Assembly: GCA_047618565.1 (NCBI GenBank)
Contig: JBLHKW010000001.1
Coordinates: 99,019 to 163,018 of the forward strand
DNA: 64,000 nt
Source of the DNA: Planctomycetota bacterium
GTDB lineage: Bacteria > Planctomycetota > UBA1135 > GCA-002686595
Direction: 5' to 3'
In this document: positions 2,959-57,224 of the stretch, one piece after another
How the letters are laid out: each line of letters starts with the position of its first letter
Position numbering within the stretch: position 1 is the first letter of the stretch
Made by a program: the position numbers and the translations under genes
Notes under the pieces: model-generated
Databases searched by the model: none
What the model saw: only the letters and a program-made list of their open reading frames with translations
Told to the model about the DNA's origin: nothing

Positions 2959-3567
2959 ATGCGCACCATGATCCTGTTCGCCTCCGCGTTCCTCGTGTCC
3001 TGCTCTGCCACCGCGACTGCACCGGTGGAAAGCGATCCTCGCATCGCGAAGGTCGAAGCCTTCCGCGAGCTTCGAAGCATGGGGGACCGTGAGGCCGCCC
3101 GCGCACTGCTCAGCGCGGATGCCCGCATCTGGTGGGGCGAGAGGGATGGCCCCGGGTCCCCGTGGAGTCTGGAGGGTGGCCCCTGGAGCGACTGGGACGA
3201 TCATTTCGATGGATCGGCGAAGAGCGTGACGCCGTGGACGGCGGACGGCGAGCGCGTCTGGGCGGACATCCTCGAGAACAACGACTATTACAGGCTGACG
3301 GAGAGCCAGGCCCGAGCGTGGCGGGCGGTCTACTTCCTCGACAACGATGGGGCCATCGCCGGATTCCTTGTGGCCTCCTTGCCGCGGCCCGAAACGGACT
3401 CCAGCCGCGCCGACGAGTTCGAAGCGTGGGCTGTGCGGAACCGAGGCGCCGAGGCCGAGTACCTGATGCCGGGTGGCGAGATCGACCCCACGGGCGACCG
3501 GCCGGCGCGCATGCGCTCCTTGCTGAACGAGTGGCGTGCCGACGTGGGGCTACCCGCGCTCGACTGA
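2959..3567 (+). CDS. Hypothetical lipoprotein
   Basis: 202 aa with a signal peptide and lipobox (FASAFLVSC). Composition and GC3 look coding. No family recognised. Confidence 0.7.
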   Translation: MRTMILFASAFLVSCSATATAPVESDPRIAKVEAFRELRSMGDREAARALLSADARIWWGERDGPGSPWSLEGGPWSDWDDHFDGSAKSVTPWTADGERVWADILENNDYYRLTESQARAWRAVYFLDNDGAIAGFLVASLPRPETDSSRADEFEAWAVRNRGAEAEYLMPGGEIDPTGDRPARMRSLLNEWRADVGLPALD

Positions 3568-3572
3568 CGCGC

Positions 3573-3646
3573 CCAGGAAGCCGTTGAAAAAGTCATCCGG
3601 ATGCTACTGCCCTGGCATTTGGAGCACTTTATCAACAGCCTCCTGG
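3573..3646. repeat. Miniature (74 bp) member of the GTTGAAAAAGT palindromic repeat family
   Basis: The termini CCAGGAAGCCGTTGAAAAAGT and ACTTTATCAACAGCCTCCTGG are inverted repeats. The element fills the gap between two convergent stop codons (3565-3567 and 3648-3650). Confidence 0.6.
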
Positions 3647-3647
3647 C

Positions 3648-5075
3648 TCAGGCGCGCGCCTCGAGGGGCGGGCGCGAGCGCCAGCGGCCACGGGTGAAAT
3701 CGGGGATGTCGACGGGGCGGGATCGGTCGCCGTTGCTGATCTCGGTGCAGTGCGTGATCACGCTCAGGGCGGCCCCATCGTAGACGTCCATGTCCATGGC
3801 CTCGCCATGGTTGAGGGACTCGATCAGGCGCACGTCCTCGAAGAAGTCCATTCCGCCGTGACCAGCACCCTTGGCCGCTGCGGCGAGGCGCGTGTAGAGC
3901 GGGTGCTCGAACTTGTCCGCGTGGTCCATCAGCTTGTCCCACTGATGCGGCTCGCTGACCCCCTCGATGTAGATCCGGTCGGGGTAGCCCTGCACGATGC
4001 CCCGGGTGCCCTGGACGATGTTGATGCGCGAGTAGGGCCGCGGCAGATTGCAGTCGTGTCCGACGGTGATCGTGTGGCCCAGCCTGGTCTTGATCATGCA
4101 GAAGTTGACGTCACCGAGCTCGTAGGTCTCCGAACGGACGGGATGGTCCTCGGGGAAATGCTCCAGGGCGTAGTCCTGCAGGCCGCGTGAGGTCGAGCTC
4201 ATGGACACCAGGTAGTCGAAGGCGTCGCCGCGGTTGATGTTCATGACCTGTGCTACCGGGCCCAGACCGTGGGTCGGGTAGAGGTTCGCATCGCGCTCCA
4301 TCGAGTGCTTCCTGCGCCACACGCCCTCGCCATCCATGTCGTGCTTGACGCCGCGCAGGTCGTGCATGTACCCGGCTTCGGCGTGGACGATCTCGCCCAG
4401 GACGCCCTGGCGCGCCATGTTCAGCACCATCATCTCCGAGCGGCCGTAGCAGCAGTTCTCCATCATGACGCAGTGCCGCTGCGTGCGCTCGGCCGTGTCG
4501 ACCAGCTGCCAGCACTCGTCGATCGTCAGCGCCATCGGCACCTCCGTCGCGGCGTGCTTGCCGTTCTCCATCGCTGCCAGGCAGATCGGAACGTGCCAGC
4601 GCCAGGGCGTCGCGGTGTAGACCAGGTCCACGTCATCCGACGCGCACAGGTTCTTCCAGTCCGTCTCGCCGGCAGTAAAGAGCTTGGGGCGCGGGAAGCC
4701 GGCCTTCTCGACCTTGTCGGCATTGCTCTCCGCGCGTCCCGGCACGACGTCGCACAGGGCCGTGATGCGGCAACCGGGGATCTTGACCAAGTTGTTGATG
4801 TGCGCCGACCCCATGCCGCCGACGCCCACGAAGCCAATCCGAACCTCCTCGATGGGGGCCGCGGCAAACAACTCTTCGGGGGCTGGCTCCTGTTTGCCCG
4901 TGGTGCCGGTGCCTGTGCTCGAACAGGACGAGAGCGACATGCCTCCCAGGGCCGTCCCGAGCCCCGTGAGGGCCGTGAACTTCATGAAATCCCGCCGATC
5001 GTTCGAGAGCGAGTCGCCACGCGGCTCGGTGTGGCGGAGGCTGGCGGCTCGGTCGGGGTGATCAGGGCGCGTCAT
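3648..5075 (-). CDS. GH109-like NAD-dependent alpha-N-acetylgalactosaminidase (Gfo/Idh/MocA fold) with Tat signal
   Basis: A twin-arginine motif (DRRDFMKF) requires the start at ATG 5075. The Rossmann segment is VRIGFVGVGGMGSAHINN. The stretch TPWRWHVPICLAAMENGKHAATEVPMALTIDECW..MMENCCYGR..LNMARQGVLGEIVHAEAGYMHDLR closely follows the GH109 pattern. Confidence 0.9.
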   Translation of the reverse strand: MTRPDHPDRAASLRHTEPRGDSLSNDRRDFMKFTALTGLGTALGGMSLSSCSSTGTGTTGKQEPAPEELFAAAPIEEVRIGFVGVGGMGSAHINNLVKIPGCRITALCDVVPGRAESNADKVEKAGFPRPKLFTAGETDWKNLCASDDVDLVYTATPWRWHVPICLAAMENGKHAATEVPMALTIDECWQLVDTAERTQRHCVMMENCCYGRSEMMVLNMARQGVLGEIVHAEAGYMHDLRGVKHDMDGEGVWRRKHSMERDANLYPTHGLGPVAQVMNINRGDAFDYLVSMSSTSRGLQDYALEHFPEDHPVRSETYELGDVNFCMIKTRLGHTITVGHDCNLPRPYSRINIVQGTRGIVQGYPDRIYIEGVSEPHQWDKLMDHADKFEHPLYTRLAAAAKGAGHGGMDFFEDVRLIESLNHGEAMDMDVYDGAALSVITHCTEISNGDRSRPVDIPDFTRGRWRSRPPLEARA

Positions 5076-5184
5076 GTTCTGGGGGGTCCGGCAAGGGGCC
5101 AATCGGGGGCAGCTGGTCAGCGAGCTTCCGGACTGTAGCATCAGGGCCGTTCCGAGCACGTGCCACGTTTCTCCTACACCCTCG

Positions 5185-6852
5185 ATGACCATGGGAATCA
5201 CGACCAGAGCTCTCACCTATCTGCTTCCAGCGATCCTCTGCGGCAACGCGTCCGTCGGAGCCTTCGGCGCACAGGTGCCCATGGACAATTCTCCAGGCGC
5301 GCTGGGTCTGATCCCGATGCCGCAGATCCTGGAGCGGGCTGCCGGTGAGTTCCGCATGGTGGCGAGCACGAGCATCGCCTTCACGGAAGCGTCCGCGCGC
5401 CCCGTCGCCGAGTATCTCGCTGGCCGACTACGACCGGCGACGGGGTTGGCGCTGGAACTCGTCGAGAGCCGACTCGCCGCGGGGGCGATCCAGCTGAACC
5501 TGAGAGCGGAGCTTGTACAGAGGCTCGGCACCGAAGGCTACACGCTCGAGTGCAAGCCGGACGGAGTGGCCCTCACCGCCGGCACTCCCGCGGGACTCTT
5601 CTACGGATGCCAGACCCTGTGCCAGTTATTGCCGCCAGCCATCGACAGTCCATCTCGCGTAGCCGACGTGGACTGGGTCGCAGCCTGCGTACGCATCGAG
5701 GATCAGCCGCGTTTCGAGTGGCGTGGTTTGATGCTCGACACGGCGCGCCACTTCTTCCCGGTCGAGTTCGTGAAGCGTTGCATCGACCTGATGTCGCGCC
5801 ACAAGCTGAATCGATTCCACTGGCACCTGACCGAGGATCAGGGCTGGCGCATCGAGATCCTGGCGCACCCTGAACTGACCCTGGTGGGTTCGCGGCGCAA
5901 GGAGACACCGATACCGAGTGACCGCGGGCGTGGTGATGGTCAGCCCCATACGGGCTTCTACACCCAGGCCGAGATTCGCGAGGTGGTCGCGTACGCCGCA
6001 GAACGCTTCGTCACCGTGGTGCCCGAGATCGAACTGCCCGGGCACGCGCTGGCCGCCCTCGCGACCTACCCCGAGATATCCTGCACGGGCGGGCCGTTCG
6101 ACGTTGGCACCCGCTGGGGCGTGCACGAGGATGTGTACTGCGCCGGGAACGAGGCCACGTTTGCGTTCCTGGAGAGCGTCCTGGCGGAGGTTGTCGAGCT
6201 CTTCCCCGGTGCTTTCGTTCACATCGGTGGTGACGAGTGTCCAAAGGCGCGCTGGAAGGAGTGCGCGAAATGCCAGGCCCGCATGCGCGAGAACGAGCTG
6301 AAAGACGAGCACGAGCTGCAGGCCTATTTCATCGAGCGCGTGGGACGTTTTTTGAACGCGCGTGGCAAGCGCTTGCTCGGCTGGGATGAGATCCTGGAGG
6401 GCCGGCTCGCACCGGGCGCGACGGTCATGAGCTGGCGTGGCGTCGAAGGGGGGGTCGCGGCGGCCAACATGGGACACGATGTGGTCATGAGCCCGACCTC
6501 GCACTGCTACTTCGACTACTACCAGTCCGAGGATCGGGACGCGGAGCCGCCGGCGATCGGAGGGCTCCTGTCTCTGGAGAAGGTCTACAGCTTCGAGCCG
6601 CTCCCACCACAGCTCGACGAGGCGGGTGCGCGCCATGTGCTCGGCGCCCAGGGCAACCTCTGGACCGAGTACGTTCAGAATGCGGCGCAGGCCGAGTACA
6701 TGGCCTTTCCGCGAGCGGCCGCCCTGGCCGAGCGCGTCTGGTCGTCGAGGGACGCGCGCGACTTTGGCGATTTCCGTCGGCGTATGGCGCGCCACGCGAA
6801 GCGCCTGGATGCCATGGGAGTGAACTATCGCAAGCTCGATGGGGGCGACTGA
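5185..6852 (+). CDS. GH20 beta-N-acetylhexosaminidase, secreted
   Basis: The signal peptide runs from ATG 5185 (MTMGITTRALTYLLPAILCGNASVGAFG). GH20 hallmarks are RGLMLDTARHF, FHWHLTEDQGWR and HIGGDE. Confidence 0.9.
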   Translation: MTMGITTRALTYLLPAILCGNASVGAFGAQVPMDNSPGALGLIPMPQILERAAGEFRMVASTSIAFTEASARPVAEYLAGRLRPATGLALELVESRLAAGAIQLNLRAELVQRLGTEGYTLECKPDGVALTAGTPAGLFYGCQTLCQLLPPAIDSPSRVADVDWVAACVRIEDQPRFEWRGLMLDTARHFFPVEFVKRCIDLMSRHKLNRFHWHLTEDQGWRIEILAHPELTLVGSRRKETPIPSDRGRGDGQPHTGFYTQAEIREVVAYAAERFVTVVPEIELPGHALAALATYPEISCTGGPFDVGTRWGVHEDVYCAGNEATFAFLESVLAEVVELFPGAFVHIGGDECPKARWKECAKCQARMRENELKDEHELQAYFIERVGRFLNARGKRLLGWDEILEGRLAPGATVMSWRGVEGGVAAANMGHDVVMSPTSHCYFDYYQSEDRDAEPPAIGGLLSLEKVYSFEPLPPQLDEAGARHVLGAQGNLWTEYVQNAAQAEYMAFPRAAALAERVWSSRDARDFGDFRRRMARHAKRLDAMGVNYRKLDGGD

Positions 6853-10218: not shown

Positions 10219-11331
10219 ATGAAGTACTTCAGAAGCGTCGCGACGATAGGGCTCGCCGCATTGAGTCTCGGGGCCGGGAGCGTCGAGGTCACGACGGGGG
10301 AGTCGGTCCCGAGGTTCACCATCACCACCGTCGCCGGGACGGGCGAGCGCGGGATGACGCTCGAGGAGGTCCCGGCTGTAGAGGCACTCATCGAGCGGCC
10401 CACCGCGGTGGCGGTCGACAGCAAGGGGCGGCTGTACATCGCGGATGAGCAGAACGGGCTCGTTCGCATGGTGACCCGGGACGGATTCCTGACGACCGTG
10501 ATGGGCACTGACAGCACGGACCGTCAGACCAAGGAGCGGCTCGCCGTGCTCACCAACGTCTCGAATGCCTACGGGATCGCCACGGACCTGGAAGACAACC
10601 TCTACGTCTTGAGTCGCGGTCACAGCAAGATCTTCAAGGTCGGGAGTGAGGGCTACGCGCGCTGCATCGTGGGTAACGGCCGGCAGGGCTTCGGGGGCGA
10701 TGGCGGTCCCGCTCTGGATGCCATGGTGGCTTCACCGAACCACCTCGTGGCAGACGGGCATGGCAACCTGTTCATCGCTGATACCGGGAACCACCGCATT
10801 CGAAAGGTGTCGAAGGACGGCGTGATCACCACCGTGGCGGGTACCGGGGTCGTCGGGTTTGCCGGTGATGGGGGGCCAGCCATCGCGGCCCAGCTCGGTG
10901 TGCCCTCGGCCATCGCCATCGATCTGGCCGGCAACCTCTACATCGCCGACTTCTTCAACCACCGCATCCGCAAGGTGTCCACCGACGGGATCATCACGTC
11001 GATCGCTGGCACGGGGAAGTCTGGTTACAACGGTGACGGCAAGTCGGCGGTCGAGTGTCAGATCGGTGAACCCTGTGGTGTGGCGGTCGACCGGGAGGGG
11101 TACGTGTATATCGGGGACCAGCTGAATAATCGGGTGCGCGTCGTGACCCCGAAGGGAATCATGCACACGGTGGCCGGCACCGGTGTACGCGGGCACACCG
11201 GCGACGGCGGGCCGGCCGAGCAGGCCGAGATATCGAATCCGGACATTCTTGCCTTCGATACCCAGGGCAATCTCTACTTCCCCGACCACGTCAACTGTGT
11301 CGTGCGCAAGCTCACCCGCGTGACGGAGTAG
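10219..11331 (+). CDS. Secreted NHL-repeat beta-propeller protein
   Basis: GAGGAGG RBS and a signal peptide are present. The blades repeat L(Y/F)IAD..NHRIRKV..DG.ITT(V/I)AGTG..G..GDGG.A. Confidence 0.9.
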   Translation: MKYFRSVATIGLAALSLGAGSVEVTTGESVPRFTITTVAGTGERGMTLEEVPAVEALIERPTAVAVDSKGRLYIADEQNGLVRMVTRDGFLTTVMGTDSTDRQTKERLAVLTNVSNAYGIATDLEDNLYVLSRGHSKIFKVGSEGYARCIVGNGRQGFGGDGGPALDAMVASPNHLVADGHGNLFIADTGNHRIRKVSKDGVITTVAGTGVVGFAGDGGPAIAAQLGVPSAIAIDLAGNLYIADFFNHRIRKVSTDGIITSIAGTGKSGYNGDGKSAVECQIGEPCGVAVDREGYVYIGDQLNNRVRVVTPKGIMHTVAGTGVRGHTGDGGPAEQAEISNPDILAFDTQGNLYFPDHVNCVVRKLTRVTE

Positions 11332-17312: not shown

Positions 17313-17330
17313 CGTAGGCGCGCAGATCGG

Positions 17331-19418
17331 ATGGGTCTCCTGGACACCCTCCCGATGAGTATCGACAACCCGCTACGAATTCAGTCCGCCCGCACCGAGA
17401 TAGACCGTCTCGACGACGAGCTACTCCAGATCCTGGCACGGCGCATGAAGGCCGTGCACGAGGTTGGCCGCGCCAAGGGGCGCGAGACCGGGATGCGTTT
17501 GCTGGACACCGGGCGCGAGCGCGGGTTGCTCGAGCGATGGCGGCGGCGGGCGGAGGCCACGGGCCTTTCCGAGCAGCTGGCCGGAAGAGTGCTGCGCGAG
17601 GTCCTGAACCACTCTCGTCGTGCCCAGGAAGTCGACCAGGGGGACCGCTCGTGGGGTTTCGCAAGCGTTCCGCGTGTTGCCTATCAGGGCGAGGTGCATT
17701 GTTACAGCGACCTGGCCGCCACCAAGCTCTTCGAGACCCGTTCACGCATCGGCGCGGAGCGCGTCGGGTACCGGACGTTCGCGGATGCCATCGATGCGCT
17801 GCGCGCCGCGCGCGTGGACTACGCGTTGCTACCCGCCGAGAACAGCATTGCGGGCAGTATCCCCGAGCTGAACCAGCTTCTAGCGGAGCGCGATCTGTAC
17901 GTGGTCGATGAGGAAGTCTGGGAGGTGGAGCACGTGCTCGCAGTGCGCCCGGGGACGGAAAAGGCTCGCATCACGCGCGTTCGGTCGCACCCCGTTGCGC
18001 TGGCGCAGTGCGGCGCGTTCCTGTCGGGTCTGCCCGGAGCCACGCCCGAGCCCTGGCACGATACGGCGGGCGCCGCTGCAGCGCTGGGCACGGGAACCGA
18101 CGACCAGCCAGGGCACGAAGGCGTGGCCGTGATTGCCTCCGAGGAGGCTGCACTGGCCCACGGCCTGACCATCGTCAAGCGCCATATCGCGGACCAGCAG
18201 CACAACGTCACGCGCTTCTTGCTGCTCGCACGTGCACCCGAGGTCGCGCCGCGCGGACTGGCCACGAAGACCTCGTTGCTGATCACCCTCGACCACCAAC
18301 GTGGAGCTTTGGCGGCGGTACTCGCGGCCTTCGCGGCACGTTCGATCAACCTGACTCGAATCGAGAGCCGGCCAGATCCCAGGACACCCTGGCAGTATCG
18401 GTTCTTCATCGATCTCGAGGGGTCTGGCGAGGATGAGAACCTGAGGCGAGCACTCGAGGAGGTGCGCTGCCACTGCAATCTCCTGCGCGAGCTGGGCACC
18501 TACCCGATGCGGACGAAGGAGGGCGAGCACCTGAAAGGGCCGGAACGCCAAAGCGTTCCGCGCCCCGCTCTCCTCGCTCCCGTTGAGGTCCCTGGCGATT
18601 CCGTGCCTGCGGAAGCACCCGACGCTCCCGGTCGGGTCGAGTCCGCCGTTGTCAAGGTGGGCGACACGTCCATCGGTGGGCAGCAGTTCGCGCTGATCCT
18701 GGGCCCCTGCGCGGTCGAGAGCCGTGAACAGATTCTCGAGTCGGCTGAGATGGCAAGGCGCGCCGGTGCCTCGATCCTGCGCGGCGGTGCGTTCAAGCCG
18801 CGCACCTCACCGCACTCCTTCCAGGGGCTCGGCAACGAAGGCCTGATCCTGTTGCAGGAGGCGGGCCGGTCCGTGGAGCTGCCCGTCGTCACGGAACTGA
18901 TGCGTATCGAGGATCTCGAGGCGGTCGTGCAGACCGCAGATATGATCCAGGTCGGCGCGCGCAACATGCAGAACTACGCCCTGCTGCGCGCACTCGGTCG
19001 TGTCGATCGGCCAATCCTGTTGAAGCGTGGACTCAGTGCCACGGTCGACGAGCTGCTCTCGGCTGCTGAGTACATCACCGCAGGCGGCAACCAGCGCGTC
19101 GTCCTGTGCGAGCGTGGGATCCGCACCTTCGAGACGGCCACGCGCAGTACCCTCGACCTGGGCGCCGTTGCGGTGCTCAAGACGCGCACTCACTTGCCGG
19201 TGATCGTCGATCCGTCCCACGCGGCGGGTGCGAGGCACCTGGTGGTCCCGCTCGCTCTGGCGGCGGCCGCGGTCGGTGCGGATGGCCTGATCGTCGAGGC
19301 GCATCCGAACCCGGCGCAGGCCCTGTGCGACAAGGATCAGGCCCTCACAGCGGCGGACCTGAAGACACTTGTTCAGGGCCTGCAGCCGATCCTGCACTCG
19401 CAAGGGAGAGTCTTGTGA
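17331..19418 (+). CDS. Fusion protein: chorismate mutase + prephenate dehydratase + ACT domain + type I-beta DAHP synthase
   Basis: - CM: IDRLDDELLQILARRMKAVHEVGRAK.
- PDT: RVAYQGEVHCYSDLAA..ENSIAGSI.
- ACT: TSLLITLDHQRGALAAVL..ESRP..WQYRFFIDLEG.
- DAHPS: LILGPCAVES..GGAFKPRTSPHSFQGLG..VDPSHAAG..
All four lie in one frame with no stop. Confidence 0.9.
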   Translation: MGLLDTLPMSIDNPLRIQSARTEIDRLDDELLQILARRMKAVHEVGRAKGRETGMRLLDTGRERGLLERWRRRAEATGLSEQLAGRVLREVLNHSRRAQEVDQGDRSWGFASVPRVAYQGEVHCYSDLAATKLFETRSRIGAERVGYRTFADAIDALRAARVDYALLPAENSIAGSIPELNQLLAERDLYVVDEEVWEVEHVLAVRPGTEKARITRVRSHPVALAQCGAFLSGLPGATPEPWHDTAGAAAALGTGTDDQPGHEGVAVIASEEAALAHGLTIVKRHIADQQHNVTRFLLLARAPEVAPRGLATKTSLLITLDHQRGALAAVLAAFAARSINLTRIESRPDPRTPWQYRFFIDLEGSGEDENLRRALEEVRCHCNLLRELGTYPMRTKEGEHLKGPERQSVPRPALLAPVEVPGDSVPAEAPDAPGRVESAVVKVGDTSIGGQQFALILGPCAVESREQILESAEMARRAGASILRGGAFKPRTSPHSFQGLGNEGLILLQEAGRSVELPVVTELMRIEDLEAVVQTADMIQVGARNMQNYALLRALGRVDRPILLKRGLSATVDELLSAAEYITAGGNQRVVLCERGIRTFETATRSTLDLGAVAVLKTRTHLPVIVDPSHAAGARHLVVPLALAAAAVGADGLIVEAHPNPAQALCDKDQALTAADLKTLVQGLQPILHSQGRVL

Positions 19419-20596
19419 TCCAGCGCGGCTGCAGTGTGCAGCTCAGTCGGCTGGCGCGGTCGGTGCGCGAGTCGGCGACCATGGCGGGCAGCAGCGCACC
19501 CATTCCTCATCCGCACCCGATCAATCTCGCGATAGGGCAGCCCGCCGAGGGCCCGGCGCGCGTGGTGATCGAGGCCGTGGTCAAGGCCGCGCGCGACGGT
19601 CAGACGCGCTACGGTCCGCCCGCGGGCCTGCCAGCGCTGCGCGCCCTCGCCGCCCGGGATCAGTTTGAGAAGACTGGAATCACGCGCGCCGTCAAGGAGG
19701 TCATCATCACTCCCGGCGGCAAGCCGGCGCTGCTCGATGCCCTGCGCTGCATGCTGGATCCCGGAGATGAGGTGCTGGTCCTCGCGCCCTACTGGCCGTC
19801 CTTTCTGCAACAGGTGGAGCTCGCCGGTGGGCGCGCTCGCATCGTGCCGCCCGGACCCGGCCTGCTACCCGATCCGGATACGATCGCCGCAGCCTGCACG
19901 GAGCGCACGCGCGTCATCATCCTGAACGACCCCTGCAATCCGACTTCCCGCACCCTCGGCGCCAGCCTCCTGCGACGCATCGGCGAGGTCGCCCATCAGC
20001 GCGGCCTGTGGATCCTGGCCGACCAGGTGTACGCAGACCTGGTCCTCGATGGGGATCACGTCCCCTTGCTGGCCGTTGCGCCCGAACTCGCCGAGCACAC
20101 CGTGGTCGTGGAGAGCTTCTCGAAGCGTTTCGCCATGACGGGCTATCGGGTCGGCTACGCGTGCGGTCCTGCGCCCGTGATCGGGGCCATGACGCGTCTC
20201 GCGACCGCATCGACCACCTGCGTCAACTCCCTGGCCCAGCACGCCGCCATCGCGGCTCTGTCCATGGACGACACCTGGATTAGGGCGCAGCGCGCGCGTT
20301 ATCGACGCCGTCGCGACCGCGCTTGGGCGCTGCTCGAGTCCCTGGGATGCGCCCCGGCGTGTCTGCCCGATACGGCGTTCTACCTGTTCTTCCCCGTGCC
20401 GCCGGGGGCAGAGGATGATGCGATCGTGCGCGATCTACGCCTGAACGAGGGCTTGACCGTGCTCTCGGGGAGCGACTTCGGAGCGCCCGGCCACATCCGC
20501 CTCTCCTGCGGGGCGTCGGACGCCGAGCTCGATGAAGCGGGTCTTCGCCTGAGGCGCTTCCTGGGCGCGGCGACCGTTTTCGACGCCCCCCGCTAG
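19415..20596 (+). CDS. Class I/II pyridoxal-phosphate aminotransferase (aspartate/aromatic/prephenate type)
   Basis: GTG 19415 overlaps the upstream TGA (GTGA), with GGGAGAG just upstream. N-terminal LSRLARSVRESAT and the PLP-lysine motif SFSKRFAMTGYRVGY are present. An alternative start is GTG 19436. Confidence 0.9.
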   Translation: MIQRGCSVQLSRLARSVRESATMAGSSAPIPHPHPINLAIGQPAEGPARVVIEAVVKAARDGQTRYGPPAGLPALRALAARDQFEKTGITRAVKEVIITPGGKPALLDALRCMLDPGDEVLVLAPYWPSFLQQVELAGGRARIVPPGPGLLPDPDTIAAACTERTRVIILNDPCNPTSRTLGASLLRRIGEVAHQRGLWILADQVYADLVLDGDHVPLLAVAPELAEHTVVVESFSKRFAMTGYRVGYACGPAPVIGAMTRLATASTTCVNSLAQHAAIAALSMDDTWIRAQRARYRRRRDRAWALLESLGCAPACLPDTAFYLFFPVPPGAEDDAIVRDLRLNEGLTVLSGSDFGAPGHIRLSCGASDAELDEAGLRLRRFLGAATVFDAPR

Positions 20597-20771
20597 CAGT
20601 CCGTTGAAAAAGTCCCGTAGCGAGACGAAGCCATCTTCGTCGCAGCAAGGAGTGCGAAGTCGAGACGGCGGAGGCGGCCCTGTAGGGCCGCTGAGCACGG
20701 CTCGACGAGCACGACGCAGCGGCGGCGGAGAGGGCGAAGTCGAGCAGGGAGTTTTTAGGGCGGGCTGCTAG
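20593..20771 (+). repeat. Type-1 palindromic MITE/REP-like element (179 bp) flanked by CTAG on both sides
   Basis: The termini CAGTCCGTTGAAAAAGTCCC and GGGAGTTTTTAGGGCGGGCTG are inverted. Internal hairpins are GACGAAGccatCTTCGTC and GCGGCCCtgtaGGGCCGC. It is the reverse complement of 42770-42897 except for a ~51-bp internal insert. Confidence 0.85.
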
Positions 20772-22516
20772 TGCGGCCGGAGGTTATTGCGCCCCCTGGG
20801 CCCCTGCAGCCCCCCGACTGCCCTGAATGTCCGACCGGTTTCGATGTGCGTGGCCGTCACTGAGTAACACGCCAGGCCGCCGCCCAGGTTGCGTGGGTTG
20901 TCGAGCTCAATGAGTACCGGCGCAACGCTTTCGGGCGCAACCTGGATGGGCTGCTGCGAGAGGATGCGCGGATTGATGGGGCCGTCCACGGTCGAGCGTC
21001 GCTTGCCGCAGCGAGTTCCAGAGGGCTCGCCGCGCACGGCGACGGTGAACGTGCCCGTGAGTCCAGTCCCGTTGATGAGGTTGCCGGTGGTGGTGACCGT
21101 GGGGACCAGGATAGGCGTGAAGGGGATGCCGATCACGGGTTCGAGCTCCGTGTAGATCTTGCACTGACCGCTCGTGTGCGAATCGAAGGTCAGTTCGACC
21201 TCGAGCGGCTGGAGCGCGCGAAAGAAGATCTGAACTTCGTCGAGTCCTCCGATGAGGTCCAGGCCGACGCCTGCGCCTCCATCCTGGGCGAAACGCAGCG
21301 GGAGGGCATTGGTCAGGCTCCCGGGCGCAGGCGTCGGGTCAAACGTCGTCGCGATCCCGTCGATCCAGATCGTGCCGCCATCGATCTCGCTACGGTCGAC
21401 CCCCACGACGATCTGAGACCATTCGCCAGCGGCGAGCGCTACGGTCGAAGTTGCGGTCACACTGGCGAGCGAGGCGTCGACCATGGTGAAGCCCACGGTT
21501 CCATCGGTATTCACGACGACCGTGTAACCGGCGCCGGTGAAGATCGGAGGCGACTTCGCGAACAGGGTCTGGTCGGTGCCCAGCGCATCGACCTTGACCC
21601 AGGCTACGATCGAGAAGTCGTCGTCGTCAAGCTCGAGTTCCATGGCCGTCGGGATGGAGACGCCGCTGGCGAGGAATGCGAGCGATGTGTCGACGTATCC
21701 CGGGGTGGGCGTGGGCCCCGCGATGTGCGTGCCGTGCAGTCCATAGATGACTTCGTACGCCGTGGTTCCGGATAACTCGTCGAGGGTCCACCACGCGAGC
21801 AGATCGTCGGGTGGATGGACGCAGGGCTCGCACTGCAGCGAGACCATGTCGAGGTAGTAGTAGGCGCTGCCCGGGTGGAGTGGCGGATCGGGCCCGAGCC
21901 CGGCCGGGATACTGGCGCTGCTCGTCGCGTCGTGGAAATTACCGATGGTGACGAACTGCTCGCCACCCTCCGCGACGAAGGTCCCATCGAGTTCGATCCA
22001 CTCCAAGATGTCCGTGAGGAATGTGCCCGCGGGCGTCTCGAACTGGGGCGTGTACGGCAGGTTGAAGTAGTCGCCCGCGCTGATGGCCGTGTCAGAGAGG
22101 TAGGCGCCGATCCTGTCCGTAGCGACAGAAGAATCCTCGGCCAGGCTCAACTGCATCGAGAAACGATAGGTCTTTCCGGACTCGAGCCCGGTCCCGAGGA
22201 TTGGAGTTTGCACGTACTCTCGATATCCGATGGGGGTGTCGGACAGAGCGAAGAATGCCGCGTAGGCGTCACCGTGGAAAGCGTCCTGGAATCCGAGCGC
22301 ATTCAGGGGCACGCCTGTGACGCCGCTTGTGTCGCAGGCGTTGAAGTAGTCCGACGACCCCAATGTGGGCGCCGTCCACAGGATCGAGCAGGTGATCTCG
22401 GAGGGTCCGCTCGGGCAGCAGGTGAACTGCTCGAAGCTTGGATTCGGAATCAGCTCCTGACCGAATGCGGACAGGCTCGTTCCGATTGTGACGGCGACAA
22501 GAAATACTCTACGCAT
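20768..22516 (-). CDS. Secreted LamG/concanavalin-A-like lectin domain protein
   Basis: The signal peptide is MRRVFLVAVTIGTSLSAFGQ. The LamG_3-like block is LAWWTLDELSGTTAYE..DDFSIVAWVKVDALGTDQTLFAK. Its stop TAG lies inside the right CTAG of the repeat. Confidence 0.8.
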   Translation of the reverse strand: MRRVFLVAVTIGTSLSAFGQELIPNPSFEQFTCCPSGPSEITCSILWTAPTLGSSDYFNACDTSGVTGVPLNALGFQDAFHGDAYAAFFALSDTPIGYREYVQTPILGTGLESGKTYRFSMQLSLAEDSSVATDRIGAYLSDTAISAGDYFNLPYTPQFETPAGTFLTDILEWIELDGTFVAEGGEQFVTIGNFHDATSSASIPAGLGPDPPLHPGSAYYYLDMVSLQCEPCVHPPDDLLAWWTLDELSGTTAYEVIYGLHGTHIAGPTPTPGYVDTSLAFLASGVSIPTAMELELDDDDFSIVAWVKVDALGTDQTLFAKSPPIFTGAGYTVVVNTDGTVGFTMVDASLASVTATSTVALAAGEWSQIVVGVDRSEIDGGTIWIDGIATTFDPTPAPGSLTNALPLRFAQDGGAGVGLDLIGGLDEVQIFFRALQPLEVELTFDSHTSGQCKIYTELEPVIGIPFTPILVPTVTTTGNLINGTGLTGTFTVAVRGEPSGTRCGKRRSTVDGPINPRILSQQPIQVAPESVAPVLIELDNPRNLGGGLACYSVTATHIETGRTFRAVGGLQGPRGRNNLRPH

Positions 22517-24485: not shown

Positions 24486-24539
24486 CTAGCCCGATCTATT
24501 CATGACCACGCGGACGAAATACCACGAACGGCCTGCTAG
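24486..24539. repeat. Remnant (solo terminus) of the type-1 repeat between two CTAG sites
   Basis: CGAACGGCCTGCTAG at 24525-24539 matches the family terminus CAACGG(G/C)CTGCTAG. Its TAG, on the minus strand, is the stop of the sulfatase-like gene. A second CTAG lies at 24486-24489. Confidence 0.35.
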
Positions 24540-26083
24540 CGGCGCTCGGACTCGCACGACTCGGCCCCGATGAGCACGTCTGTCCGCTCCTCGTCCGTGC
24601 CGACGTAGCCGAGGGAGGCCAGGTTCTCGGCGACGGCGGCATCCTCATGGACACTCCATCCAGTCAGGCCGCCCGGACGGCCGCGGAACTGCAAGAGCTG
24701 CGCGCGCATGCTATCGCGCACCAGGGGTCGATCGAGCAACCGATCGACGCTCTCGGTCGGGTCCTCGTCGATCCCATAGAGCTCCTCGCAGTGCAGGCGG
24801 AAGCCGCGCTGGAAGCGCTCGAAGGGCGGTTTTTTGGGGTGTGCTCCACGCGGGTTGAGCACGTACTTGTGCTCCGCATCGCGCACGGTCCAGATCAGAT
24901 CCTGCCACTCGGAATAGACGTGCTGGCGCGGAGGCGCAGGGTCGTCGGATGCGAGGGATCGCGCCAGGGACACGCCCTCGAGCTCGTCCGGAACGTCTTC
25001 GCCAAGCCAGGTCAGCAGCGTCGGGACCAGATCCAGGCTCTGTACCAGGGGCTCGAACGTCGTGTCCACCGGCAGTCTTCCCGGCCAGCGCACGATCCAG
25101 GGCACTCGCAGCGTGCCGTCGTAGATCGAGTTGCCGTGGTAGTAGTAGGCTCCATGGTCAGCCAGCTCCTCACCATGGTCAGCGGTGAGGATCACGAGCG
25201 TCTCCTCGGCCAGGCCGCGCGCGTCCAGGGTCTCGAGCAGCTTGCCCACGAGGGAGTCGGCGGCGCGAACGCCTCCATCGTAGAGGCCGATGACATAACG
25301 ATGATCCGCGGGATCGAGGGGCGTTTCCGTGACGGCCGCGTGGCCCAGTCGTGTGTCGATCTTGCGCCAGTCGGGCTGGCCCTGGCGGCCGAGCAACGGC
25401 CCCGCGTAGTCACCGGTGAAGAGGCGGTCGAAGGGCGGGGGCGGGGTGTAGGGTTGATGGACGTCGTACAGGTGGACCCAGCAGAAAAAGGGCCGCTCGT
25501 CATCGGGGGAGCGCGAACTCAGCCATTCGATGGCCTTGCTCGTCACGAACGCGTCCGAGTCAGCTTGCTGCACGAGTCGCTTCTTCTTGCCGGACACGAG
25601 CTCGTCAGTGCCCTGGGCTGGATGTCCGAGCGGGCTGGCCGGCAAGCGCGAGAGGAAGGCGCTCGTGCGGTATCCGAGTGCCGACATGCGCTCGCTCAGG
25701 GTCGTCTGCGTTCCGGCGAACGGCTGACCGTTCTCGCGCACACCGTGCATCGATGGGTACTTGCCGACCATCAACGAGCACAGTGAGGGCGCGGTCTGCC
25801 CGCGCGGGACGAAGCACTGCTCGAAGCGCACTCCCTGGCGCGCGAAGGCATCGATCGCAGGGCTCACGGGCTCGGCGTAGGGCGAATAGCCGTAGCACCC
25901 GAGGTGGTCCGCGCGCAGGGTGTCGATGGTGATCATCAACACCGGCGGCCTGGGGCCGGGAAGCGCGCTGTCAGATGCGGCGCTGCAGGCGGCCAGGACA
26001 TGGGCCAGGAGGCATGCCACCCACGGGGACAGCGGGTGCGAGAATGGGCGCGGCATGCGGCGCGCGACGGGCTCCGGGAGCAT
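24536..26083 (-). CDS. Sulfatase-like hydrolase/transferase lipoprotein with Thr in place of the formylglycine Cys/Ser
   Basis: The sulfatase N-terminal block is ITIDTLRADHLGCYGY. The active-site region GQTAPSLCSLMVGKYP aligns to CxPSRxSLxTGxYP with T for C and L for R. The metal-site segment is TADHGE. Confidence 0.9.
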   Translation of the reverse strand: MLPEPVARRMPRPFSHPLSPWVACLLAHVLAACSAASDSALPGPRPPVLMITIDTLRADHLGCYGYSPYAEPVSPAIDAFARQGVRFEQCFVPRGQTAPSLCSLMVGKYPSMHGVRENGQPFAGTQTTLSERMSALGYRTSAFLSRLPASPLGHPAQGTDELVSGKKKRLVQQADSDAFVTSKAIEWLSSRSPDDERPFFCWVHLYDVHQPYTPPPPFDRLFTGDYAGPLLGRQGQPDWRKIDTRLGHAAVTETPLDPADHRYVIGLYDGGVRAADSLVGKLLETLDARGLAEETLVILTADHGEELADHGAYYYHGNSIYDGTLRVPWIVRWPGRLPVDTTFEPLVQSLDLVPTLLTWLGEDVPDELEGVSLARSLASDDPAPPRQHVYSEWQDLIWTVRDAEHKYVLNPRGAHPKKPPFERFQRGFRLHCEELYGIDEDPTESVDRLLDRPLVRDSMRAQLLQFRGRPGGLTGWSVHEDAAVAENLASLGYVGTDEERTDVLIGAESCESERR

Positions 26084-40871: not shown

Positions 40872-41081
40872 GCCTGGACGATACGGGGTTGGGAGCGGTC
40901 GAGTCAGGCCAAAATCGCTGTGTGCGCGATGCGCCGCTCCGGGGCGCTCTCCGGGGGGGGGCGAATTCGCGACGGATGTTACGGTCGCGCACATCGGGGG
41001 CTATTGTCTGGTGTCCGCCAGTCCCTGTTTCCTGCCAGCGGCCTCGCCGCCGGGCACATTTCAGTCCGTACACGAACCACC

Positions 41082-42773
41082 ATGAGCTCTCGACAGTTCC
41101 CGAGTCTGATCATCCTTCCTGTTCTCGCGGGCATCGCGGCGTGCGCCGGGGCGCCCGACGCTTTCGTTGCCGGTGGCGATGCGTTCGATGGAGGCGCGTC
41201 GAGTGTCGGCAGGCAAGGCATGGTCTCGAGTGCGCATCCCCTCGCCACAGAGGCGGGCCTGTCGATTCTGAGGCGTGGTGGGAACGCCTTCGATGCGGCG
41301 GTCGCCATCGCTTCGACCCTGAATGTGGTCGAGCCGATGATGTCCGGGATGGGCGGCTACGGGACGATCCTCGCCTTTGATGCCGAAGCGGGTGAAGCGC
41401 ATTACCTCGATGCGAGCGGCAAGATTCCCCGGGCCGTGGACGCGGATCTCTACCGCGCGCCGACCCCCGGCTACATGGAGAACCGACGCAATGCCAAGGC
41501 CATCTCGACCCCCGGTGCCGCCAACGCATGGGAGGCGATGTCGGAACGCTTCGGCGTGTTGCCATGGGAGAGCCTGTTTGAGCCTGCCATCGACGCGGCA
41601 CAGGGCGGTTTCGTGCTCGACGAGCGCGCCGCGGGCTGGATTGCCCTCGCCTATCCCGAGTTCCCCGCCCACGCACGTGAGTTCTACGGCAAGGATGGAG
41701 TTCCGCTGGCCGCCGGCGACCGACTGATTCAGGTGGACCTCGCCGGTTCACTCAGGGCTGTCGCCGAGCAGGGTGCCGCGGCGGTCTACAGTGGTGCGAT
41801 CTCCAGGGCGATCGATCGGGCCATGCAGGAGTCCGGTGGATTCCTCTCCGCGCATGACCTGGCGGCTGACCGGGCAGAGTGGTGGCGCCCGATCTCGATC
41901 GACTATCGCGGGTACGAGGTGATCACACCGTCTGCTCCGGCCGGCGCGTTCCCGATGCTCGTGCGCCTCGGGATGATGGAGCTCGAGGACAACCAGGCTC
42001 TCGGGCACAACTCGGTTGCTTACCTGCATCGCTTCGCAGAGGTCACCAAGCACGCGTACTGGACAAGGCTGGCCTATTCCGGGGACCCCGACGTGAAGCC
42101 GCCGCCCTACGAGCGACTGTTCTCGGCCCGCTATCTAGCGGAGCAAGAGGCCAAGCTGAACCTGGAAAAGGCCTCCGAGTTCGACACCAGCGGGATCGTG
42201 TCGGCGAACCAGAACAAGAACACCACGCACTTCGTGGTGGCCGATGAACACGGCAACGTCGTCTCCGCCACCGTCACGTTGGGCAATCTCTTCGGCAGTC
42301 GGGTCATGCCCGCGGGGACGGGGATCTGGCTGAACAACTCGCTCGCTTACTGCACCTTTGAGCCCGCCGGAAACCCGATGGACGCGCATCCCGGTCGGCG
42401 CAAGCTGTCCAGCGACTCGCCGACCTTCGTGATGCGCGATGGCCGACCCTGGGTGGCATTGGGCACACCTGGCGGGCACACCATCACCCAGACCTGCGCC
42501 CAGATGGTGATGAACGTGATCGACTTCGGCATGGACATCCAGGCTGCCATCGCTGCGCCCAGGATTGCCTTCAATGTGCCCGATCACCTGGACGTCGAGG
42601 AGGCGATTCCCGAGGCGACACGCACAACTCTCGAGGCGATGGGGCACCGTCTACGCCTGCGCACGCTCGGAAATGCCCACGGCCTCATGATCGAGTACGG
42701 CGAGGACGGAGTACCGCGCAGGTTCCTGGGTGGGACCGACCCCCGTGGCACGGGAACCGCAGTTGGGTACTAG
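41082..42773 (+). CDS. ggt: Gamma-glutamyltransferase lipoprotein
   Basis: The start is ATG 41082 with lipobox LAGIAAC. GGT blocks are GMVSSAHPLATEAGLSILRRGGNAFDAAVA and TTHFVVADEHGNVVSATVTLGNLFGS. The stop TAG lies inside the CTAG of the adjacent repeat. Confidence 0.9.
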   Translation: MSSRQFPSLIILPVLAGIAACAGAPDAFVAGGDAFDGGASSVGRQGMVSSAHPLATEAGLSILRRGGNAFDAAVAIASTLNVVEPMMSGMGGYGTILAFDAEAGEAHYLDASGKIPRAVDADLYRAPTPGYMENRRNAKAISTPGAANAWEAMSERFGVLPWESLFEPAIDAAQGGFVLDERAAGWIALAYPEFPAHAREFYGKDGVPLAAGDRLIQVDLAGSLRAVAEQGAAAVYSGAISRAIDRAMQESGGFLSAHDLAADRAEWWRPISIDYRGYEVITPSAPAGAFPMLVRLGMMELEDNQALGHNSVAYLHRFAEVTKHAYWTRLAYSGDPDVKPPPYERLFSARYLAEQEAKLNLEKASEFDTSGIVSANQNKNTTHFVVADEHGNVVSATVTLGNLFGSRVMPAGTGIWLNNSLAYCTFEPAGNPMDAHPGRRKLSSDSPTFVMRDGRPWVALGTPGGHTITQTCAQMVMNVIDFGMDIQAAIAAPRIAFNVPDHLDVEEAIPEATRTTLEAMGHRLRLRTLGNAHGLMIEYGEDGVPRRFLGGTDPRGTGTAVGY

Positions 42774-51836: not shown

Positions 51837-52263
51837 TGGGGTAATCCTGAGAATCGCGGGGGAAGGGGACCCCTGTAGATCCTCGCGGCTTGCCGAAGAG
51901 TGGCAGCAAAGTGTGGTTTTTGAAAAGTGGCGTCCGCATCGAGGGCCGGCGGTGCCGCGCGATCGGGACCCGGTCTGGTTTTCTCGAATAGCTGCCACCG
52001 TTCCGCTTCCGGGCGGACTGGCTTCCGGTCGGACTGACGAGCGCGTGCTAACTCCTACTCCACGCCCCATCCCTGCGGAATCGCGCCGCCGGGCCGCCTT
52101 CGGCAACGGAATCCGCTGTGCCGCGTGGAGCTGATGGTCCTGTCCGCAGGCCCCGGACCCGGCGACCCCCTGGGCCGAGCTCGGCCTCCAGGTGCGCCGA
52201 TGATTCGGACCCGGTTGTACTTGTCGTGCCTCATGGAGGATGATCGACGGCCGCTCCGCGACC

Positions 52264-53124
52264 ATGAACCTCCTACCGATCCTCTACAGCCTGGCATCCG
52301 CTCTCGCGTGGGGCGCCGGGGACTTCAGCGGCGGCGTCGCGAGCAAGCGAGGCGACACCTATCTCGTCGTCCTGATCTCCCAGGCGCTCGGCGGTCTGTT
52401 GCTGGCCGGGCTGGCGCTTCTGTATTCCGAGAGCCTGCTTCGAAACGTGGACCTGGTGTACGGTGCCGTCGCAGGCATCGCTGGAATGGTGGGGCTCCTG
52501 GCGCTCTACACCGGACTGGCTTCGGGCCGGATGAGCGTGATCGCCCCCCTGGCAGCCATCGTCTCGGTCACCCCGCCCGTTGTCGTCGCCGCCTTGACGG
52601 ACGGAGTTCCGGGAGCCATGACGATCGTGGGCTTCGGGTTTGTGCTGATCGCGGTCTGGTTGCTCTCCGCCGGTGGCGGAGCAACGGGCCGGATCCAGGG
52701 TAGCGAGCTGAGGTGCGCGCTCATCGCGGGTGTCGCATTCAGCGTCTATTTCGTCTTCATCGACCGCGTCAGTACCGGAGCCATCTTCGTTCCGCTCGTC
52801 GCCGCGCGGGTAGCCTCGGTCTCCTTGCTGGCCTTGTATCTGCGCCTGCGTCCGGGCTCGCTGGCCAGGTTGCAGCAGGGCGACCGGGCGCGAGGCTCCC
52901 TGCTCGCCATCATCGCGTTGGCGGGCCTGTTCGATGCAGCGGGAAACGCCTTCTTCGCCCTCGCTGTCCAGGCTGGCCGGCTGGACGTGGCCGTCATTCT
53001 CGCCTCCCTGTACCCGGCCGGGACGGTCTTCCTGGCATGGATTTTCCTGAAGGAGCCAGTGACGCGCCTGCAATGGCTAGGCGTGCTCTCGGCGCTGATC
53101 GCGCTCGCGCTCATCGCGATATAG
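52264..53124 (+). CDS. EamA/DMT-family transporter
   Basis: The start is ATG 52264. Ten hydrophobic helices are present. The N-terminus ALAWGAGDFSGGVASKR is typical of EamA repeats. Confidence 0.85.
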   Translation: MNLLPILYSLASALAWGAGDFSGGVASKRGDTYLVVLISQALGGLLLAGLALLYSESLLRNVDLVYGAVAGIAGMVGLLALYTGLASGRMSVIAPLAAIVSVTPPVVVAALTDGVPGAMTIVGFGFVLIAVWLLSAGGGATGRIQGSELRCALIAGVAFSVYFVFIDRVSTGAIFVPLVAARVASVSLLALYLRLRPGSLARLQQGDRARGSLLAIIALAGLFDAAGNAFFALAVQAGRLDVAVILASLYPAGTVFLAWIFLKEPVTRLQWLGVLSALIALALIAI

Positions 53125-53138
53125 GCGAATGTACCGAG

Positions 53139-53302
53139 CTAGCAGCCCGTGGCGAAACTCACGACGCGCTCAAATCCGCCAGGCTCCGCCCTGGCGGCGT
53201 TGCGCTTTCTCCGAGTATCCACGAATACGCGTCGTCAGCGCGCCTTGCCAGATCGAATCCTGACGCTTCGAGCCCGCCGTGACTTTCACCACGGGCTGCT
53301 AG
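53139..53302 (+). repeat. Type-2 palindromic MITE/REP-like element (164 bp) flanked by CTAG
   Basis: The termini CAGCCCGTGGCGAAACTCACG and CGTGACTTTCACCACGGGCTG are inverted. The internal hairpin is CCGCCAGGctccgcCCTGGCGG. It is about 95% identical to 57060-57224, in the same orientation. Confidence 0.9.
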
Positions 53303-57063: not shown

Positions 57064-57224
57064 CCGCGCGTGGTGAAACTCACGACCCGCTCAAATCCGC
57101 CAGGCTCCGCCCTGGCGGCGTTGCGCTTCCTCCGAGTATCCACGAATACGCGTCGTCAGCGCGCCTTGCCAGCTCGAATCCTGACGGCTTCGAGCCCGCC
57201 GTGACTTTCACCACGGGCTGCTAA
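57060..57224 (+). repeat. Type-2 palindromic MITE/REP-like element (165 bp) flanked by CTAA
   Basis: This is a direct copy of 53139-53302, with about 8 differences including 1 indel. CTAA lies at both ends. The TAA of the left CTAA is the stop codon of the upstream 1194-aa gene. Confidence 0.9.

Follow-up and report, generated by a model that had tools for sequence, protein, structure and literature searches.

The Correia/NEMIS repeats of Neisseria and the ERIC/IRU repeats of enterobacteria are palindromic, non-coding repeats of ~100–170 bp with terminal inverted repeats, which are bounded by a TA-containing duplication, are found in both orientations at the ends of genes and give long hairpin transcripts. 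REP/BIME sequences are likewise intergenic, hairpin-forming and located at gene 3' ends; however, they are only 20–40 bp long, have no target duplication and are associated with the RAYT Y1 transposase. The insertion sequence (IS) IS5 of Escherichia coli is 1.2 kb long, has the terminal repeat GGAAGGTGCGAA and encodes a transposase of ~330 residues with a DUF772 plus DDE_Tnp_1 architecture, and the MITEs derived from it have only the terminal repeats in common with their partner. IS5 prefers Py-T-A-Pu targets, with CTAG in 15 of the 24 known targets (PMC5493358).

Here we describe a 171-bp, end-to-end palindrome, recognized by sequence inspection at positions 20597–20767 of a 64-kb window (the whole stretch of DNA analysed) and flanked by CTAG on either side. 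The palindrome is very probably an ordinary non-coding MITE that depends on an IS5/IS1182-type IS, which shares its terminal repeats and whose DDE transposase would mobilize it in trans. The general plan is that of the Correia/NEMIS and ERIC/IRU repeats, but the terminal sequences are different and the duplication is a 4-bp CTAG rather than a TA dinucleotide. Moreover, those repeats have a restricted host range, whereas the family described here crosses phyla and has an identified autonomous partner.

Structure of the element and its copies in the window

The palindrome lies between convergent aminotransferase and LamG genes. The two stop codons are separated by exactly these 171 bp, and the gap contains no other sequence. 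The first-pass annotation had described a 179-bp, CTAG-bounded element filling this gap, with the TAG of the left CTAG as the aminotransferase stop and the CTA of the right one, read on the other strand, as the LamG stop; the ORF ends agree with this description. The features of the locus, and the related elements in the window, are as follows.

19106..20596, + strand: aminotransferase ORF with an Aminotran_1_2 domain; TAG stop at 20594–20596
20593..20596, + strand: left target-site duplication CTAG; its TAG at 20594–20596 terminates the aminotransferase ORF
20597..20767, + strand: MITE proper (171 bp) of subfamily A with GTTGAAAAAGTC termini; of its two strands, + ('S') is the more stable
20597..20616, + strand: left terminal inverted repeat CAGTCCGTTGAAAAAGTCCC, canonical
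20646..20650, + strand: conserved internal box CAAGG, ~50 nt from the end, pairing with the GACGC box of the other arm
20673..20692, + strand: apical stem-loop GGCGGCCC-TGTA-GGGCCGCT, strongly conserved in the 171-bp subfamily
20747..20767, + strand: right terminal inverted repeat GGGAGTTTTTAGGGCGGGCTG, degenerate; the family consensus is GGGACTTTTTCAACGGNCTG
20768..20771, − strand: right target-site duplication CTAG; CTA 20768–20770 is the LamG TAG stop
20768..22516, − strand: LamG ORF with a Laminin_G_3 domain; its stop is the reverse complement of CTA 20768–20770
42770..42897, − strand: subfamily-A copy, inverted, with a 51-bp internal deletion and flanks CTAG/CTGG; TAG 42771–42773 is the stop of ORF 40920..42773
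53139..53302, − strand: subfamily-B copy with GTGGTGAAAGTC termini; 156 bp between two CTAG flanks, beginning 15 bp past the stop of ORF 52240..53124
57060..57224, − strand: subfamily-B copy, 157 bp plus CTAA/CTAA; TAA 57061–57063 is the stop of a 1194-residue GSDH/PKD gene
3573..3642, no strand assigned: related 70-bp mini-palindrome in a convergent gap, termini GAAGCCGTTGAAAAAGTC / GAGGCTGTTGATAAAGTG, flanks CCAG/CTGG

No ORF of at least 60 residues lies wholly inside the 171 bp, so the element is short and without coding capacity; two minus-strand ORFs (20280..20648 and 20435..20698) enter it from the aminotransferase coding region. The sister copies and the 171-bp subfamily have canonical inverted repeats at both termini. 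In the 20597 copy, the inverted termini noted previously are canonical on the left and degenerate on the right. The right repeat has decayed, and this copy is therefore probably no longer mobile.

The window carries four full copies in two subfamilies, at 20597, 42770, 53139 and 57060. The latter three are among six other sites for which related termini had been reported; at the remaining sites, the mini-palindrome at 3573–3642 has termini slightly different from those of the full copies, and 24525 and 44413 are no more than candidates, terminus-like fragments of only 10–12 nt that adjoin stop codons. The terminus pattern previously suggested for searches, AGCAGNCCGTNGNGAAANGTCNCG, is shifted by one position and for this reason has no match in the window at up to three mismatches; the corrected pattern TARCAGNCCGTKGNRAAANTCNC finds seven termini at up to three mismatches versus 0.04 expected by chance. 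A '43-bp insertion' in the 20597 copy was considered and rejected, as 171 bp is the canonical length of the subfamily and it is the 42770 copy that carries a deletion.

Family, target sites and partner elements

The termini of the family are conserved (CAGNCCGT[T/G]G..AAAGTC). A genome scan identified more than 116 loci among the matches listed, in many phyla including Acidobacteriota, Planctomycetota, Latescibacterota, Gemmatimonadota and Proteobacteria, and a metagenome scan for the termini identified 120 loci. Outside the window, MAGs and metagenomes that span many phyla yielded more than 90 MITE copies, and further copies are located at contig ends within the same population as the window. 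The element is thus present in multiple dispersed copies, four of them within 64 kb, and the family appears to be abundant in Acidobacteriota, Planctomycetota and other environmental phyla. The 20597 copy aligns over its full length with a metagenomic subfamily of 170–171 bp, with a mean column identity of 82%. An exact 28-mer from the element had no match in the metagenome collection, indicating that the source population is absent from that collection. In the searchable literature, no description of the terminal repeats was found, the terminal 12-mers retrieved unrelated primers only, and publications on MITEs, stop codons, IS5, CTAG and IS1182 gave no account of the family.

Identical 4-bp direct flanks are present in 92 of 147 paired elements (40/66 from genomes and 52/81 from metagenomes), and CTAG accounts for 28 of the 40 and 45 of the 52, respectively. 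After CTAG, the duplicated flanks are CTAA/TTAG, followed by TTAA, TTAC, GTAA and CTAC. Pairs such as CTAA...CTAA, TTAC...TTAC and GTAA...GTAA are direct and not inverted; therefore, the 4 bp are a duplication that lies outside the inverted repeat. Its length is fixed while its sequence varies from copy to copy, as is characteristic of MITEs, and the 4-bp Py-T-A-Pu pattern, with CTAG the commonest, is that of the IS5 subgroup (PMC5493358). The interpretation of the flanking YTAR tetranucleotides as target-site duplications is borne out by these flanks, but not every copy has a duplicated pair.

Other genomes and metagenomes contain full-length elements of 1271–1556 bp that share the MITE termini and the 4-bp duplication and represent the autonomous partner. 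As with the IS5-derived MITEs, only the terminal repeats are common to the MITE and its partner. The partner elements encode proteins of ~460 residues with mutual identities of 44–61%, and the transposase matches DUF772 (PF05598, 63 bits, cut-off 23.1) and DDE_Tnp_1 (PF01609, 30.4 bits, cut-off 23), which is the architecture of IS5 and identifies a DDE transposase of the DDE_Tnp_1 type found in the IS5 family. An IS5-like transposase behind the duplications, as proposed in the first-pass annotation, is supported by these elements; the full-length IS5-like element anticipated there exists in other genomes and metagenomes, and no transposase homologue is present within the 64-kb window.

The partner nevertheless differs from IS5 in its terminal repeat (given above for the family) and in its size (1.3–1.55 kb and ~460 residues), and it scores lower against the NCBIfam family IS5_4 (89 bits) than against IS1182 (157 bits). 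These two are its best NCBIfam families, and it misses both cut-offs (89.1 vs 140 for IS5_4; 156.9 vs 270 for IS1182). Since the transposase is below the NCBIfam cut-off of every named IS family, it is assigned here as IS5/IS1182-type and not to a named subgroup. A 1457-bp IS on plasmid pLB1 (AB244976, ~39.6–41.1 kb), which has homologues on sphingomonad plasmids, encodes a transposase that is 50% identical and is annotated as 'IS5 family transposase'; the terminus of this IS, CAGGCCGTTGACGAAGTCGG, has 16 of 18 positions in common with that of the MITE, and the IS is flanked by a CTAA duplication. In contrast to the MITE, this IS is autonomous and full length and resides on a proteobacterial plasmid, where no MITE derivative is annotated.

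From these similarities, we infer that the DDE transposase of an IS5/IS1182-type IS with the same 18–20-bp terminal inverted repeats would move the MITE in trans. Integration would proceed through a staggered 4-bp cut at a Py-T-A-Pu site, mostly CTAG, which would then be duplicated.

Stop codons and the double-stop arrangement

Of the MITE flanks, 25 of 103 act as gene stops, and at least one such flank is present in 23 of 49 MITEs (32 of 71, or ~45%, in a larger set); as a baseline, 114 of 1149 free CTAG/CTAA/TTAG sites (10%) serve as gene stops. CTAG occurs 24 times in the 64-kb window, compared to 71 occurrences expected from a Markov model, an approximately threefold depletion. Two haloarchaeal papers discuss CTAG avoidance only.

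Because the family inserts into CTAG, the duplicated target often doubles as the stop of the neighbouring gene. CTAG and CTAA hold a stop codon and are otherwise scarce in this genome of 66% G+C. A gene hit at a stop-codon CTAG would stay intact, since the duplication regenerates the stop, so that copies would persist mainly at gene 3' ends, and selection of this kind is the likely cause of the enrichment. The family would then be a clean case in which a stop-containing target and G+C-rich, CTAG-poor genomes together steer surviving insertions to gene 3' ends. The duplication restores the stop codons and does not make new ones: the earlier suggestion that the element supplies the stops does not hold, as the copies inserted at CTAG/CTAA sites in which these stops were already present, whereas insertion into CTAG with regeneration of a TAG stop agrees with the duplicated flanks, the stop-codon enrichment and relatives that lack the element.

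An orthologue of the GSDH/PKD gene with 77% nucleotide identity ends at the same last residue, in CCCTGACG, without a MITE, where the window reads CCCTAA[MITE]CTAACG. The element is likewise missing next to the aminotransferase orthologue in a relative, and 22 bp separate this gene from its neighbour. The relatives compared are only ~77% identical, and the position of the stop is kept while synteny past the element is not. These relatives have orthologous gene ends without the element; a true empty site in a near-identical strain was not found.

At the 20597 copy, the aminotransferase stop is provided by one duplicate and that of LamG by the other. If this resulted from a single insertion, both ORFs would have ended in one CTAG, with GACGCCCCCCGCTAGTGCGGCC as the expected empty site; the palindromic CTAG could in principle be a stop on both strands. 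It is quite possible, if somewhat short of probable, that the double-stop arrangement arose instead by later recombination, by a transposase-mediated rearrangement between two MITEs or by a chimeric assembler join at the repeat, and not by a single insertion into a CTAG common to two overlapping convergent stops. Among 71 MITEs, this copy alone is flanked by a stop on either side. Contig L117, from the same population, is 99.97% identical to the window across 13415–20774 but departs immediately after the right CTAG, where another gene on the minus strand follows that also uses this CTA as its stop; the element of L117 carries one SNP with respect to that of the window. As this near-identical contig joins the element to a different gene, the arrangement in the window may be a product of recombination or misassembly. 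Additionally, contigs L119, L120 and L245 from other assemblies terminate within MITE copies, LamG adjoins the aminotransferase in only two of three MAGs (as counted by NCBI accession numbers), and synteny with the 77% identical relative breaks at the 57060 copy as well. However, two independent MAG assemblies give the arrangement of the window, and contig L119, on the LamG side, has the SNP variant of the window.

The MITE accounts for places where contigs end and synteny is lost in these metagenome-assembled genomes, and it marks possible chimeric joins. Annotators should also be aware that stop codons here sit within transposon target duplications.

Hairpin folding and strand asymmetry

Each strand of 20597–20767 folds into a single long and imperfect hairpin that spans the whole element. 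The + strand has a folding energy of −110 kcal/mol and a z-score of −9.7, and the − strand a z-score of −5.0. In addition to being a MITE, the element could carry a hairpin that has been recruited, or is under selection, for a single-stranded function; candidate functions are termination of transcription in both directions, stabilisation of mRNA 3' ends, an RNA encoded by the element, and a transposition substrate made of folded ssDNA, although we regard such a function as unlikely. Whole-element folds have z-scores between −9.7 and −11.6. In a cross-phylum alignment of 24 sequences, compensatory changes are found at 31 of 47 pairs with 92.5% of cells paired, and the covariation score is 0.448, compared to 0.16 for shuffles and at most 0.108 for slid controls. 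One strand is more stable than the other in 47 of 49 copies, the asymmetric internal boxes are conserved, the inner stem of subfamily A is bordered on both strands by A5 on its 5' side and T5 on its 3' side, and divergent (promoter) gaps are rarely occupied (1 of 21 classifiable contexts). On the other hand, the orientation relative to host genes is random, with genes that end in the duplication reading the stable strand 20 times and the other 15 times, and tandem contexts comprising eight sense and six antisense cases. The arm-versus-arm counts are only 102 G.T versus 65 A.C, many of them at shared and hence inherited positions; the T-run is absent from subfamily B; and arm symmetry can persist in palindromic MITEs without an RNA function. 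No Rfam family matches: in the window there are no matches at the gathering score, and only chance-level ones at E-values up to 10.

This random orientation led us to reject the view that the hairpin asymmetry reflects a strand-specific function in host mRNAs. The idea that the stable strand corresponds to the sense strand of the transposase was dropped since both ends of the MITE resemble the left end of the IS.

Given the cross-phylum compensatory pairing, the asymmetric boxes and the presence of one more stable strand in nearly every copy, the conserved hairpin of ~160–170 nt could go beyond mere cargo of the transposon and act single-stranded, either as an RNA working with or regulating the IS5-type transposase or as a folded ssDNA form that is the actual substrate of MITE amplification, but this reading is distinctly improbable. 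The covariation and the consistent strand asymmetry exceed the needs of transposition alone; the current understanding of MITEs is unchanged by this family, and only this strand-asymmetric, covarying hairpin could lead further.

The position between convergent genes and the strong hairpin would also suit a REP/BIME-like palindrome outside genes or a hairpin terminator that evolved locally, but this alternative from the first-pass annotation is extremely unlikely given the length of 171 bp, the matching direct 4-bp flanks that differ among copies, termini identical to those of insertion sequences with a DDE rather than a Y1 transposase, close copies at unrelated loci in unrelated phyla, and orthologous sites without the element. 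The only hit of a scan with the intrinsic terminator consensus is a 6-bp stem with TTTTT behind it, which lies within the repeat, and the A5/T5 runs around the long stem occur in subfamily A only.

The element at 20593-20771 and related sequences in the window

An element bounded by CTAG that closes the gap between two convergent genes, with the stop codons of both neighbors in its flanks, had been proposed in the first-pass annotation, and the sequence and ORF coordinates agree with this description. CTAG is found at 20593-20596 and 20768-20771, with 171 bp between; since both stop codons lie in these tetranucleotides, the element occupies the whole gap between the stops. The left terminus has the canonical form of the family; the right one is degenerate. 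For both strands, the predicted fold is a single long, imperfect hairpin that spans the element (-110.1 kcal/mol, z = -9.7 for the + strand; -77.9 kcal/mol, z = -5.0 for the - strand). The two internal hairpins described previously are present, but as local alternatives within this single fold.

Features of the element, its neighbors and related sequences (coordinates; strand; description)
19106..20596; +; class I/II aminotransferase ORF, stop TAG at 20594-20596
20768..22516; -; Laminin_G_3 (LamG) protein ORF, stop is the reverse complement of CTA at 20768-20770
20624-20641; +; local hairpin GACGAAG-CCAT-CTTCGTC
20673-20692; +; local hairpin GGCGGCCC-TGTA-GGGCCGCT
20597-20767; +; more stably folding strand of this copy
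42770-42897; opposite orientation to the 20593 copy; subfamily-A copy, 96-97% identical over two blocks
53139-53302 and 57060-57224; -; copies of a second subfamily (B), 94-100% identical to each other
53143-53298 and 57064-57220; -; more stably folding strand of these two copies
3573-3642; strand not given; 70-bp mini-palindrome, termini GAAGCCGTTGAAAAAGTC and GAGGCTGTTGATAAAGTG, flanks CCAG/CTGG
24525-24539 and 44413-44432; strand not given; terminus-like fragments of 10-12 nt, ACGGCCTGCTAG and CAGGCCGTTGcgCTAA

Related termini had been listed at six further sites, of which those at 42770, 53139 and 57060 are indeed copies, 3573 is a related mini-palindrome, and 24525 and 44413 are fragments only. 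The search pattern suggested earlier was out of register and gave 0 matches; the corrected terminus pattern found 7 termini in the window, with 0.04 expected by chance, and a profile search confirmed four copies and their orientations. Members of the 171-bp subfamily can be aligned with the 20593 copy from end to end (82% mean column identity); therefore, the 42770 copy is an internally deleted derivative, and not the reverse. The mini-palindrome, which fills the space separating ORFs 2959..3567 and 3648..5216, a convergent pair, probably represents a related yet distinct MITE family. Each of the two fragments adjoins the stop of a minus-strand ORF (24536..26083 and 44429..46507, respectively), and they could be remnants or chance matches. 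Additionally, three diverged 87-nt direct repeats (10426-11016, spacing 168 and 336 bp) within ORF 10219..11331 are probably a protein repeat domain unconnected with the MITEs.

A dispersed MITE family with IS5-like targets and partners

In the wider search that had been proposed, the terminus pattern matched at more than 116 loci of species-representative genomes, and a subfamily-A pattern matched at 120 metagenome loci. The genome matches listed are nearly all in MAGs, often at contig ends, and include Acidobacteriota/Vicinamibacterales, Planctomycetota, Latescibacterota, Gemmatimonadota, Polyangia, Alphaproteobacteria and others. Paired termini delimit MITE-size elements, with length modes of ~158 bp (subfamily B) and 170-171 bp (subfamily A), and a second size class of 1.27-1.56 kb. 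The element is a MITE by its defining features, and the main reading of the first-pass annotation is supported; assignment to the REP/BIME class was rejected on the criteria for that class. Literature searches returned no description of these termini, and no Rfam family matched. Some MITE copies are adjacent or nested with a CTAG in common (L167:5850-6054, L039:1862-2660, L045:1352-1619 and L111:5923-6723, all from other genomes or assemblies), and many subfamily-A copies contain an internal CTAG (GGCTAGGAAC); thus, the elements present targets to one another.

Identical 4-bp flanks, earlier read as YTAR target duplications of the IS5-like kind, are borne by 40 of 66 paired elements among the genome matches listed (28 of them CTAG) and by 52/81 in metagenomes (45 CTAG); the remainder include CTAA, TTAG, TTAA, TTAC, GTAA, CTAC and TTAT. 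Because TAR was imposed by the search pattern on just one side, the opposite flank is an unbiased test. Non-palindromic pairs, such as CTAA...CTAA, are direct repeats, and the four bases are therefore a duplication outside the inverted repeat. IS5 is reported to have the same preference for Py-T-A-Pu targets, and 15 of its 24 known target sites are CTAG (PMC5493358).

The anticipated full-length IS5-like element with the same termini is represented, in other genomes, by the 1.27-1.56-kb elements, which carry a transposase and have an 18-20 bp terminal repeat, and little beyond it, in common with the MITEs. One of these (L026:1542-2930) encodes a 462-aa protein with Pfam matches to DUF772 and DDE_Tnp_1. 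Its best NCBIfam scores are 157 bits for IS1182 (cut-off 270) and 89 bits for IS5_4 (cut-off 140), and no named NCBIfam model reached its cut-off. Homologues 44-61% identical lie within other long elements of both subfamilies, and plasmid homologues are 50% identical, the one on pLB1 being annotated "IS5 family transposase" within a 1457-bp element (terminus CAGGCCGTTGACGAAGTCGG, CTAA duplication). In its target and its duplication, the partner behaves as an IS5-subgroup element, and its domain architecture is of the IS5/IS1182 kind. The 64-kb window contains no transposase homologue. A homologous IS on Solidesulfovibrio magneticus pDMC1 (L122, 7.6-9.0 kb), whose termini are CAGCGTGTTGAAAAACTC and CAGGCCGTTGCAAAAAGC, has the flanks TGTA/TGTA, which are unusual as a target of this family.

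Stop codons and the double-stop junction

The window contains 24 CTAG sites, compared with 71 expected from a Markov model and 204 from base composition alone, and ~10 of the 24 are gene stops. CTAA (6), TTAG (14) and TTAA (1) are likewise rare; GATC and TCGA show no depletion. A flank was counted as a gene stop if the ORF that it ended showed GC3 periodicity and was 300 nt or longer. By this measure, 25 of 103 MITE flanks qualify, and 23 of 49 MITEs (32/71 in a larger set) have at least one; for the free CTAG/CTAA/TTAG sites of these loci, the baseline is 114 of 1149. The stop association is therefore a real, approximately fivefold enriched property of the family, which stems from a stop codon within the target and, by inference, from loss of insertions landing within genes. 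Of the 71 MITEs, the 20593 copy alone has a stop on each flank.

The proposal that the element supplies its neighbors' stops holds insofar as insertion into CTAG regenerates a stop; however, the stops pre-existed. In a relative with ~77% nucleotide identity, the orthologue of the GSDH/PKD gene beside the 57060 copy ends at the same last residue (…TFAP), its stop being the TGA within CCCTGACG, and lacks the MITE, while the window reads CCCTAA[MITE]CTAACG. The aminotransferase orthologue, also without the element, ends in a TAG three codons earlier, 22 bp from its neighbor. Thus, the duplication merely regenerates stops. Synteny with the 77% relative stops at the 57060 MITE (window 57224 onward; L123:11586-12835); the relative's downstream gene has an orthologue at window 38049-39218, and its upstream PSD1-type gene is at window 60564-64000.

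Contig L117, from the same population, is 99.97% identical to window 13415-20774, with one SNP in the element (C at window 20746, T in L117), and diverges at the base immediately after the right CTAG (window 20768-20774; L117:7354-7360). Beyond it lies a different minus-strand gene (470 aa), for which the same CTA is again the stop. Other assemblies of this population have contigs ending inside MITE copies (L119:7749-7890, L120:3745-3798 and both ends of L245), adjoining LamG, and the GSDH/PKD gene on both sides; these repeats thus fragment the assemblies. LamG is next to the aminotransferase in two of three MAGs by NCBI accession order. The window arrangement may therefore have arisen by recombination or by a rearrangement at the element, or be the assembler's choice. 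The NCBI label "Chlamydiales bacterium" on the source MAG looks wrong: the window has a G+C content of 65.6%, and for two of its proteins the nearest named homologues come from Planctomycetota MAGs and Engelhardtia mirabilis.

Covariation and strand asymmetry of the hairpin

The covarying, strand-asymmetric hairpin is the sole lead worth following. When 24 subfamily-B copies, drawn from several phyla, were aligned in their homologous orientation, a 47-pair consensus hairpin was obtained, with compensatory changes in 31 of the 47 pairs and 92.5% of cells paired. The covariation score is 0.448, compared with 0.16 for shuffles and at most 0.108 for slid partners. In 47 of 49 copies, in both subfamilies and across phyla, the same strand has the more stable fold, and G-U pairs account for only part of this asymmetry. 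In a symmetric count of one arm against the other, G.T stands at 102 and A.C at 65, with many at shared positions. About 55 nt in from each end lie conserved asymmetric boxes, C[AT]AGG... and ...G[AC]ACGC. Of the genes whose end lies in the duplication, 20 read into the stable strand and 15 into the other; in tandem contexts the counts are 8 sense and 6 antisense, and 1 of 21 classifiable contexts is divergent. Since orientation relative to host genes is random, a strand-specific role in host mRNAs is unlikely to explain the asymmetry. A terminator consensus scan returned only a trivial 6-bp stem. In subfamily A, A5 precedes and T5 follows the inner stem on both strands, an arrangement that, as sequence, looks like a bidirectional terminator.
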